From a virus (Duplodnaviria > Heunggongvirae > Uroviricota > Caudoviricetes): 36,600 bases of DNA. Position 1 is the stretch's first letter, and each line of letters begins with the position of its first letter. The position numbers were made by a program. Below are positions 30,001 through 33,000 of the stretch, piece after piece. Location of the stretch: the IMG/VR virus record IMGVR_UViG_2639762844_000004; one strand, written 5' to 3'.

Positions 30001-33000
30001 CGACCTGAGCATCATCCAGCCAGAAACCTGCTTTAGTGAGTGCGTCAAAAGCGGCTTTTTGCAGATTATCCAGGTCACGGCGACGGCGATCCGGCATGTG
30101 GCACTCAATGCGGATTTTCACAGGCATAGCCAGGCCGATATCTAGCATTGCGTTTTTAATGATTCGGGCGACGTTATCGCGGTATGCCTGCCCCTCTGCG
30201 CTGATGTGCGTGCGTCCGCGATTATGCCGGTAGTAGCGGTTATTGCTCGGAGGCCAGGGTAATGTGATGCTGTAGGTATTCACGCCTTAATAACCCCCTC
30301 TTTCAGCCAGATAACCTGTGTTCTCGCCATACCTTCCAGCGCGCATTCTTTTGCATATGCAGCATCGACTTGCTTGGCATGCCCTTTACCGGCAATCTTC
30401 TGTATGCGCTAAACCTAGATAGAATCCACTCTGTGCACATTGAAGCCCGCTCTATGCTTCCTTTCAGGTATTGAAGGGATTGAGATGGGCTAAGCATTAT
30501 TGGCCTCCTGCATCAGGAGAAAGACAATCATGGCGGCGCGGAGAGGTCTGGTATGAAGTGGTCAACAAAAACTGGCCACCGAGTTAGAGTTTTTTCCAGT
30601 ATCGATTTTCCGATTCGTTTGGTGGTAACCCACCATTATATTCGTGCGGTCTTAGTGCGCTGTAATATCCAACGATATAGTCCGTTATTGCGTGAGCTGC
30701 ATCGCTGAAGCTTACATAGCCCGTCGCCGGCACCCATTCGTTCTTCAGACTCCTGAAGAAGCGCTCCATTGGGCTGTTATCCCAGCAGTTTCCACGCCGA
30801 CTCATACTCTGCCTGATCCGGTATCTCCACAGTAACTGCCGGAACTGCCTGCTCGTATAATGACTGCCTTGATCGCTGTGGAACATCACCCCGACGGGCT
30901 TACCACGGGTTTCCCATGCCATTTCCAGTGCTTTCATGGTAAGCCTGCTGTCCGGCGAGAACGACATGGCCCAGCCCACTGGTTTTCTTGCGAACAGGTC
31001 GAGAACAACGGCGAGGTACGCCCAGCGCTTACCCGTCCAGATATAGGTCACATCACCGCACCACACCTGATTTGGCTCGGTCACGGCGAACTGCCGTTCA
31101 AGGTAGTTAGGGATAGCAACATGTTCATGACCACCACGTTTATACCGGTAAGTCGGCTGCTGACAGCTGACCAGCCCCAGCTCTTTCATGAGTCTGCCAG
31201 CAAGCCAGCGCCCCATCTGGTAGCCTCTCTGGGTTGCCATTGTGGCGATGCTTCTTGCTCCGGCAGAGCCGTGGCTGATGCCATGCAGTTCAAGTACCTG
31301 GCTGCGTAATACAGCCCGTCTGCCGTCTGGCTTTTCAGGACGGTTTTTCCAGTATTTGTAGCTGCTGCGATGGACCCCGAACACATGGCAGAGAGTGGCC
31401 ACAGGATAACGCGCCCTGAGTTTCCCGATTATCGAGAACTGTTCAGGGAGTCTGACATCAAGAGCGCGGTAGCCTTTTTTAATATTTCATTTTCCATTTC
31501 AATACGTTGTAGCTTTTTCCTGAGCTCACGGATTTCAATTTGTTCCGGGGTAATGGGGGAGGCTTTTGGTGTTTTTCCCTGCCGCTCATCACGTAATTGT
31601 TTCACCCATCGCGTCATTGTGGAAAGGCCGACATCCATAGCGCTGGCTGCATCTGCCACGGTGTAATTCTGGTCAACGACCAGTTGAGCGGATTCGCGTT
31701 TAAACTCTGCGCTGAAATTTCTTTTTTTCATTATGGCACCTGTGTTGTTCTGAGGTGAGCATATCACCTCTGTTCAGGTGGCCAAATTCAGTAAACCACT
31801 TCAACTCGAGGCGTTTTTCGTTATGTATAAATAAGGAGCACACCATGCAATATGCCATTGCAGGGTGGCCTGTTGCTGGCTGCCCTTCCGAATCTTTACT
31901 TGAACGAATCACCCGTAAATTACGTGACGGATGGAAACGCCTTATCGACATACTTAATCAGCCAGGAGTCCCAAAAAATGGATCAAACACTTATGGCTAT
32001 CCAGACTAAATTCACTATCGCCACTTTTATTGGCGATGAAAAGATGTTTCGTGAGGCCGTCGACGCTTATAAAAAATGGATATTAATACTGAAACTGAGA
32101 TCAAGCAAAAGCATTCACTAACCCCCTTTCCTGTTTTCCTAATCAGCCCGGCATTTCGCGGGCGATATTTTCACAGCTATTTCAGGAGTTCAGCCATGAA
32201 CGCTTATTACATTCAGGATCGTCTTGAGGCTCAGAGCTGGACGCGTCACTACCAGCAGATCGCCCGTGAAGAGAAAGAGGCAGAACTGGCAGACGACATG
32301 GAAAAAGGTCTGCCCCAGCACCTGTTTGAATCACTCTGCATCGATCATTTACAACGCCACGGGGCCAGCAAAAAAGCCATTACCCGTGCGTTTGATGACG
32401 ATGTTGAGTTTCAGGAGCGCATGGCAGAACACATCCGGTACATGGTTGAAACCATTGCTCACCACCAGGTTGATATTGATTCAGAGGTATAAAACGGATG
32501 AGTACAGCACTCGCAACGCTGGCTGGGAAGCTGGCTGAACGCGTCGGCATGGATTCTGTCGACCCACAGGAACTGATCACCACTCTTCGCCAGACGGCAT
32601 TTAAAGGTGATGCCAGCGATGCGCAGTTCATCGCATTGCTGATCGTCGCCAACCAGTACGGCCTTAATCCGTGGACGAAAGAAATTTACGCCTTCCCTGA
32701 CAAGCAGAACGGCATCGTTCCGGTGGTGGGCGTTGATGGCTGGTCCCGCATCATCAATGAAAACCAGCAGTTTGATGGCATGGACTTTGAGCAGGACAAT
32801 GAATCCTGTACATGCCGGATTTACCGCAAGGACCGTAATCATCCGATCTGCGTTACCGAATGGATGGATGAATGCCGCCGCGAACCATTCAAAACCCGCG
32901 AAGGCAGAGAAATCACGGGGCCGTGGCAGTCGCATCCCAAACGGATGTTACGGCATAAAGCCATGATTCAGTGTGCCCGTCTGGCCTTCGGATTTGCTGG

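Follow-up and report, generated by a model that had tools for sequence, protein, structure and literature searches.

The 36,600-nucleotide stretch analysed here (IMG/VR record IMGVR_UViG_2639762844_000004, hereafter the window) is part of a lambdoid prophage integrated at tRNA-argU in the chromosome of Escherichia coli ECC-1470. We propose, with a probability of about 0.82, that this is a cryptic, or grounded, prophage whose control and replication block was lost by a deletion anchored on an active copy of the insertion sequence (IS) ISEc52. As such it is a further example of a well-known kind, the cryptic lambdoid prophage whose core was lost via an IS-associated deletion. The term grounded prophage is reportedly already used in reviews. 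An earlier note on this DNA had compared the element with one, and the comparison is supported, as N, pL/oL, cI, cro, cII, ori/O and P are absent while the virion, lysis, Red and int genes remain.

On the reverse strand, positions 639920..603321 of NZ_CP010344.1, the chromosome of ECC-1470, match the window with 100% identity. ECC-1470 is a bovine mastitis isolate. The prophage occupies the DLP12 site between fimZ and ompT-envY. Its integrase gene (35437..36600) abuts tRNA-argU and fimZ, with argU just outside the window. At the opposite end the prophage goes on for about 4.6 kb outside the window, taking in ydfK and genes for a methyltransferase and a hydrolase before it reaches ompT, and beyond ompT the chromosome order envY-ybcH-nfrA is normal. 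The ECC-1470 genome paper refers to the element as "prophage 1" and mentions it for NmpC and OmpT only; neither the deletion nor the integrity of the prophage is mentioned (PMC5422975).

The immunity and replication core is missing

Early, immunity, replication and nin proteins of lambda and of the viable phage 2G7b (36 in all) were compared with the 36.6-kb window by tblastn at E<=1e-3. No match to ea10/DUF2528, ral, sieB, N, rexAB, cI, cro, cII, O, P, ren, ninB-ninI or dam was found anywhere in the window. The sole exception was a stretch of 2G7b NinX, residues 94-113, which matched with 100% identity at 30493..30552. No repressor, Cro, O or P appears among the RefSeq annotations of the entire element, and the window's only regulator-like products belong to the Rha family (25411..25935) and to the TraR/DksA zinc-finger type. 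The claim that the window holds no repressor, operators, origin or replication genes was borne out by both approaches. Compared with an inducible lambdoid phage, the element lacks the immunity region (CI-type repressor, Cro and operators, with pL/oL absent), the replication module (O with ori, and P or an equivalent) and N. It possesses cos, terminase, head and tail genes, a Q-dependent late operon, lysis genes and int-att, with the exception of tfa.

Breakpoint alignment with two intact relatives set both ends of the deletion. In 2G7b (NC_049954) window position 30557 corresponds to 41789 and position 31799 to 32980, and 8808 bp of the phage are absent. In the intact prophage of strain CEA224S (L016 in our numbering of comparison loci) the breakpoints fall at 18355 and 25730, and about 7.4 kb is absent from the window. 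These values are near the 8-10 kb that had been estimated. The absent interval in both relatives holds ea10/DUF2528, ral, sieB, N, cI, cro and cII and continues through O/ori, P, ren, ninB, dam, ninE and most of ninX. On the left the deletion ends within ninX, of which the last 20 codons and the stop codon are left (30490..30553, minus strand; tblastn and junction alignment). On the right 41 bp are left upstream of cIII (31804..31844, plus strand), and junction alignment with 2G7b, F247 and LR-71-1 places this endpoint in the ea10/DUF2528-cIII intergenic region.

The missing block has not been moved to another place that could be detected in the chromosome. Adding DUF2528 and ninX5'-ninE-dam, the DNA bordering the deletion, to the locus query gave no new matching place in ECC-1470 (7 places before and after the addition when the IS was part of the query, 2 before and after when it was left out); this search covered the chromosome record, not the plasmid, and a copy less than about 2 kb from the single other Q/Red-like locus would merge with that locus. 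The earlier note had envisaged the missing segment beside a second IS911, and no extra place of that description turned up in the chromosome. IS-mediated inversion or transposition of the core was also considered and rejected, as the chromosome order is normal on both sides and no second copy of the border DNA was detected in the chromosome record.

A complete ISEc52 without target duplication lies at the deletion

Between the two endpoints lies one complete IS of 1250 bp on the minus strand. It occupies exactly the span previously given, 30554..31803, and both of its termini are complete, with the right inverted repeat (IRR) at the 30554 end and the left inverted repeat (IRL) at the 31803 end. 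The terminal inverted repeats are imperfect; both start with TGAAGTGG, and 22 of the first 36 positions are shared. The element has overlapping open reading frames (ORFs) with an A6G frameshift, 5'-TG...CA-3' termini and a length of about 1250 bp, all as in IS3-family elements of the IS911/ISEc52 type. orfA (31429..31731, minus strand) encodes a 100-amino-acid (aa) OrfA with the Pfam domain HTH_Tnp_1 (6.8e-14), and orfAB (30562..31731, minus strand) encodes a 382-aa OrfAB fusion with Pfam rve/DDE (1e-31). The A6G -1 frameshift slippery site is at 31474..31480 on the minus strand, IS position 324.

Calling this element IS911, as was done originally, is right as to kind, since it is IS911-like and of the IS3 family, but probably not as to name. 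The Prokaryotic Genome Annotation Pipeline (PGAP) names it ISEc52, and it has 94.1% identity to another copy that PGAP labels IS911. IS911, first isolated from Shigella dysenteriae, shares with it the length of 1250 bp, the TGAAGTGG termini, the 100-aa OrfA, the A6G frameshift, the 382-aa OrfAB and 3-bp target duplications; it probably differs in sequence, the identity to the PGAP-labelled copy being only 94.1%. Neither the literature on ISEc52 nor a plasmid-collection search with the IS yielded anything on its relation to IS911 or to prophages.

The copy at 30554..31803 is not flanked by a 3-bp target duplication, as GTA lies on its left and ACT on its right. With unequal flanks, the original insertion junction can have survived on one side at most. 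The missing duplication is probably best read as a sign of rearrangement at the ECC-1470 copy and not as an argument against the family assignment. Two simple ISEc52 insertions with 3-bp duplications, ATG/ATG and AAT/AAT, are found in a prophage of ATCC 25922. The ECC-1470 copy is 100% identical to copies in JNE170426 and 23-AB02114, and the identity of 99.9-100% among copies in different genomes indicates recent activity. About five further ISEc52-like places are suggested in the ECC-1470 chromosome (a query that includes the IS matches 7 places, and one that omits it matches 2).

Microhomology at the junctions was considered and rejected. BLAST overlaps of 4-5 bp vanish on inspection; the IS termini are complete and the flanking DNA begins directly after them. 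The phage sequence before the right junction (GCTTC/ACT; 31799..31806 versus the 32980 region of 2G7b) resembles the IS terminus ACTTCA. IS911 has a tendency to insert beside sequences resembling its own ends, and the likeness could be due to such an insertion or to chance.

The ybcO remnant is older than the deletion

The earlier note had the ybcO remnant ending at about 30408 and only the IS parting it from cIII. The IS is in place, but the ninX remnant and a 120-bp spacer also lie between the two, and homology to K-12 ybcO stops at 30369. The 3' remnant of ybcO (DUF1364) is 90 bp long (30280..30369, minus strand) and is a RefSeq pseudogene. The adjacent spacer (30370..30489) is common to intact relatives in alignments. 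Viable 2G7b, CEA224S and many other intact prophages share both remnant and spacer, and so the truncation was not made by the IS event. It is instead an older fixed mosaic joint of the nin-region module, unrelated to that event. The 90-bp remnant was seen also in loci L003, L004, L007, L009 and L016 (CEA224S), and a full ybcO takes its place in K-12 DLP12 and in strain GMF054.

A compact non-homologous immunity system within 30409..30553 had been named as the finding that could overturn the proposal of a lost core. This stretch consists of the shared spacer and the ninX tail. Pfam, run on its only ORF (30303..30497), and Rfam returned nothing for it, and they gave no protein or RNA family match for the spacer at 30370..30489.

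A sister genome and the history of the deletion

The same arrangement was found in 2/5426 complete genomes, ECC-1470 and JNE170426. Between the two, 15.4 kb of prophage shows 5 substitutions and 4 kb of chromosomal flank shows 1. Their junctions are not the same. On the IRR side, JNE170426 has 233 bp of ninX that are absent from ECC-1470; on the IRL side it is shorter by 5 bp (ACTCG). Its IS is likewise without a duplication (flanks CCT/AGG). Neither structure can be derived from the other in one step. The integrase gene of JNE170426 (L002 14467..15630) has an internal stop, an instance of independent decay after the shared loss of the core.

From these junctions we infer nested IS-anchored deletions. 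The most economical history would be one large ancestral IS-anchored deletion followed by one small IS-adjacent deletion in each lineage. A copy of ISEc52 would have inserted somewhere in the early region, and transposase-driven intramolecular events would then have removed adjacent DNA outward from the IS ends, leaving the ends themselves intact. The large deletion was probably already present in the ancestor that ECC-1470 and JNE170426 share. Later, ECC-1470 would have lost a further 233 bp on the IRR side and JNE170426 5 bp on the IRL side. Because the IS termini are complete at every junction, the structures fit transposase-mediated intramolecular events. For IS911, adjacent deletions are reported to arise from tandem-dimer and circle intermediates.

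Several points weigh against this proposal. An intermediate would be the same argU prophage with its core still in place and a 3-bp duplication on either side of ISEc52; none was found, and for that reason both the place of the first insertion and the sequence of steps are only inferred. Members of the IS3 family transpose by copy-out/paste-in, and deletions of neighbouring DNA are a less classical feature of theirs than of IS1, IS10 or IS26. A single IS with no duplication would equally result from homologous recombination between two copies in direct orientation. The two-sided difference between the ECC-1470 and JNE170426 junctions needs at least two further small events. Finally, the silence of the remaining genes is predicted from lambda biology.

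Alternative explanations

It is possible, though on balance unlikely, that the large deletion arose by RecA-dependent recombination between direct ISEc52 copies located in ninX and upstream of cIII, and that the excised circle was lost. A single IS without target duplication is the exact product expected of such an exchange. Prophages with two copies exist, as in ATCC 25922, and the ECC-1470 chromosome has the further IS-like places mentioned above. The copies in ATCC 25922, however, are inverted, and no genome was seen with both of the insertions that this history calls for. In addition, the shifts at both junctions between ECC-1470 and JNE170426 would need four separate insertions or extra events.

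We consider it improbable that the core was lost earlier without an IS and that a later ISEc52 insertion trimmed just about 1-1.5 kb (ninE, dam' and DUF2528). Joins of this kind do occur. F247 joins dam' straight to DUF2528, and CFSAN061772, at argU, joins rusA' to DUF2528, both with no IS. The endpoints of ECC-1470 and JNE170426 fall within DNA kept by F247, on either side of its junction. Nonetheless, the nearest matches to the flanks are intact elements, the left flank being 100% identical to CEA224S and the right 99.4% to 2G7b, whereas the F247 flanks are only about 98% identical and its prophage is at a different attachment (att) site.

A third explanation, that the element is a maintained helper-dependent packaging or transduction cassette, was raised in the earlier note and seems to us very unlikely. 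A lambdoid phage would supply Q, N or replication, and the element would supply capsids, terminase and cos. The exact lambda cohesive end and the head, tail and lysis genes, annotated as intact except for tfa, are what such a cassette would have, and defective prophages can be packaged through prophage-prophage interactions (PMC2669165). Another ECC-1470 locus also resembles the Q/rusA or cIII-gam flanks. Against these points, the arrangement is present in only 2/5426 genomes and decay is ongoing, with a stop in tfa in ECC-1470 and in int in JNE170426. The deletion looks recent (identical IS copies, flanks 99.9%), and the intact genes consequently need no selection to explain them. The element has no origin in cis, no satellite-type or helper-sensing function and no sign of selection. 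With no replication genes and a full lambda-type virion set it does not resemble a phage satellite, whether P4-like, phage-inducible chromosomal island (PICI) or capsid-forming PICI (cf-PICI), and no satellite-type genes are annotated in it. As to a gene transfer agent or domesticated packaging element, for which one would look for purifying selection across a host lineage, host-controlled expression and packaged host DNA, the relevant observation is again the count of 2/5426 genomes.

A related scenario, to which we give equally little credence, involves in situ activation. Its starting point is that an exact lambda cos, the terminase, the virion gene set and a Q-dependent late operon of the phage-82/DLP12 type are all still there in an element that presumably can no longer excise and replicate. 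An incoming or co-resident phage with a compatible Q would switch on the late genes in the chromosome, and packaging would proceed from the chromosomal cos into ompT-envY-nfrA.

An assembly artefact, in which a collapsed IS repeat hides a core that is really present, is scarcely credible: repeated IS copies are a classic cause of misjoins, but two independently sequenced complete genomes share the arrangement with distinct junctions, the chromosome order is normal on both sides, and the DNA bordering the deletion is not found elsewhere in the ECC-1470 chromosome.

ISEc52 at other early-region deletions

ISEc52 without a target duplication was also found at early-region deletions in other prophages. 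At icd in C691-04A it lies between ninB and an ea22-like gene, and at icd in FDAARGOS_1255 it lies between cI and sieB', where only the N region is lost. In 23-AB02114 it joins YbgA' to DUF2528'. In E5, at the lambda att site, an ISEc52 of opposite orientation separates rusA from a truncated DUF2528 gene, which indicates an independent event. ISEc52, whose active copy we hold responsible for the ECC-1470 deletion, may be a recurrent and possibly targeted agent of prophage grounding, with scars at at least four att sites (argU, icd, att-lambda and a torI-associated site).

Joins between the Q side and the cIII side are found elsewhere with IS5 (LR-71-1), with IS3 and IS1A (strain 300081) and with no IS (F247 and CFSAN061772). 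The ISEc52 copies at the early-region scars (L002, L007, L008, L009, L010 and L011) are 98.96-100% identical. Target duplications are absent at the L002, L007, L008 and L009 copies, which were the scar copies examined for flanks, E5 (L011) being outside this set.

Comparison with known prophages

The ECC-1470 argU prophage is a far fuller allele of K-12 DLP12. The two share the argU site, the integrase (99.8%), the Q(quuD)-ylcG-rusA segment (99.1%) and a 306-bp exo fragment (100%), and their porin, lysis (essD-rrrD-rzpD) and nohD modules are about 97% identical. N, cI, cro, O and P are missing from DLP12 too, and its early-region scar likewise holds an element of the IS3 family. DLP12 differs in that almost all of its virion and Red genes are lost, the exo fragment alone being left, whereas in ECC-1470 the virion genes still span about 23 kb, the porin gene is intact and the cIII-exo block is complete. 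In DLP12, furthermore, ybcO is intact, the nin side carries another insert (emrE, ybcK-N), nmpC is split by IS5 and the IS at the scar is IS3.

The closest intact relatives are those that served for the breakpoints. Phage 2G7b has the same gene order and cos and is 99.4% identical over 31799..36600, the arm from int to cIII, and 93-98% identical elsewhere. The CEA224S prophage has the same Q-rusA-ybcO'-ninX flank (100%), and its CIII, Kil, Gam and Bet have the same RefSeq accessions. Unlike ECC-1470, both carry the full ea10-to-ninX block where the IS now stands.

A comparable case is said to have been described in the lambda genetics of the 1960s-70s. In the lambda 'crypticogen', an IS2 in the prophage reportedly promoted immunity-region deletions, leaving lysogens that were non-immune and non-inducible with markers that could be rescued. 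It differs from ECC-1470, by these accounts, in its laboratory origin, in the IS (IS2, not ISEc52) and in the endpoints.

Sp3 and Sp8 of O157:H7 Sakai are likewise lambdoid prophages without CI/Cro, Sp3 also without replication genes, in which many morphogenesis and lysis genes are kept (PMC2669165). They differ in att sites, in modules and in having additional defects. In assays neither Sp3 nor Sp8 underwent excision/circularisation, replication or packaging (Asadulghani et al. 2009; PMC2669165).

Retained phage genes and their decay

On the right of the IS, the lambda pL operon genes cIII, kil, gam, bet and exo are present as a block (31845..33960, plus strand; tblastn 97.8-100% to the lambda proteins; RefSeq). 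The ATG of cIII is at 31845, as had been stated, and the CIII and Kil proteins (block 31845..32121) are 100% identical to those of lambda. A complete cIII thermoregulator RNA overlaps the start of cIII (31832..31890, plus strand; Rfam RF01804, 88.5 bits, E=2.6e-21). The lambda-like CIII, Kil and cohesive end stand beside a non-lambda Q, int and nin region, a clear case of lambdoid mosaicism.

A Xis-like helix-turn-helix (HTH) ORF with Pfam HTH_17 and the integrase gene intD, 99.8% to K-12 intD, occupy 35180..36600 on the plus strand. For 35180..35581 (plus strand) PGAP gives only a 66-bp pseudogene, 'HTH, missing C-terminus', and K-12 xisD is also listed as a pseudogene. The ORF starting MESYSLTLDEACQFLKISRPTATNWIRTGRL has an HTH_17 excisionase-type motif, and 35150..35460 is 100% identical to viable 2G7b. 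Judged from sequence, the excisionase may be functional and mis-annotated by PGAP.

On the left of the IS, on its IRR side, are rusA, the Holliday-junction resolvase gene (29921..30283, minus strand; Pfam RusA E=6e-23; RefSeq; 99.1% to K-12 DLP12), and quuD, which encodes a late antiterminator Q of the phage-82/DLP12 type (29315..29698, minus strand; Pfam Phage_antitermQ E=4e-53; RefSeq). ylcG (29784..29924) lies between them. Between Q and the holin gene is an intact gene for a 365-aa porin (NmpC/Lc/OmpD-like; 28028..29125, plus strand) on the strand opposite to the late genes. The lysis cassette follows with the essD holin, the rrrD endolysin and an Rz-like spanin (26278..27454, minus strand; RefSeq). 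The region from the lysis cassette to cos (24406..26178) is a variable accessory region. In this prophage its plus strand carries ylcI/ynfO-like and DUF1398 (ybcV-like) genes and its minus strand the Rha-family regulator gene; relatives have bor/iss there.

The cos cohesive end GGGCGGCGACCT (24195..24206, minus strand) is exactly that of lambda and coincides with the ends of the linear 2G7b genome. The virion block extends from nu1/nohD to the tail fibre gene (1005..24018, minus strand; RefSeq) and is 96-98% identical to 2G7b, with all genes annotated as intact except tfa. The tail-fibre assembly gene tfa (1005..1580, minus strand) is interrupted by an internal stop, which leaves ORFs at 1284..1580 and 1005..1238. 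The claim that every virion, lysis, Red and int/xis gene is present is slightly overstated with regard to tfa. Laboratory lambda can do without side tail fibres. A pin/PinR-type serine recombinase gene (317..907, plus strand) adjoins tfa and suggests a former invertible tail-fibre segment; no convincing inverted repeats were found within 1..5000, and the segment may lie partly outside the window.

Predicted activity of the element

Reasoning from lambda biology, an element without pL, pR and N should have no early transcription, one without ori, O and P should not replicate, and one without cI should confer no immunity and should not respond to SOS induction. Unless transcribed from outside, Q, the late genes, Red, kil and int are expected to be silent. 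A simple consensus scan for outward promoters at the IS ends or near cIII revealed no promoter-like site at either junction. The IRR has an outward -35 sequence, TTGACC, with no fitting -10 sequence in the flank by eye.

The ISEc52 transposase gene reads toward ninX'-ybcO'-rusA-ylcG-Q. In DLP12, IS2 and IS10 insertions upstream of the normally silent rusA activate it (PMC1636454). With this precedent, low-level read-through from ISEc52 into rusA and Q is possible in ECC-1470. Otherwise the element is predicted to contribute only passively, as a reservoir of alleles for recombination with incoming lambdoid phages.

Significance

"Prophage 1" of ECC-1470 is to be treated as non-inducible and non-immune and as a natural, fuller relative of K-12 DLP12, a result of little importance beyond bookkeeping. 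Any expression of rusA or of late genes in ECC-1470 would be a possible side effect of the direction of the IS transposase gene, given the DLP12 precedent (PMC1636454). If late genes were activated in situ and packaging proceeded from cos, the locus would be a helper-triggered platform for lateral transduction. ECC-1470 and JNE170426 together offer a snapshot of two-sided, IS-anchored erosion between near-identical prophages. The presence of one IS at independent early-region losses across att sites suggests a possible route of prophage inactivation that can be quantified.

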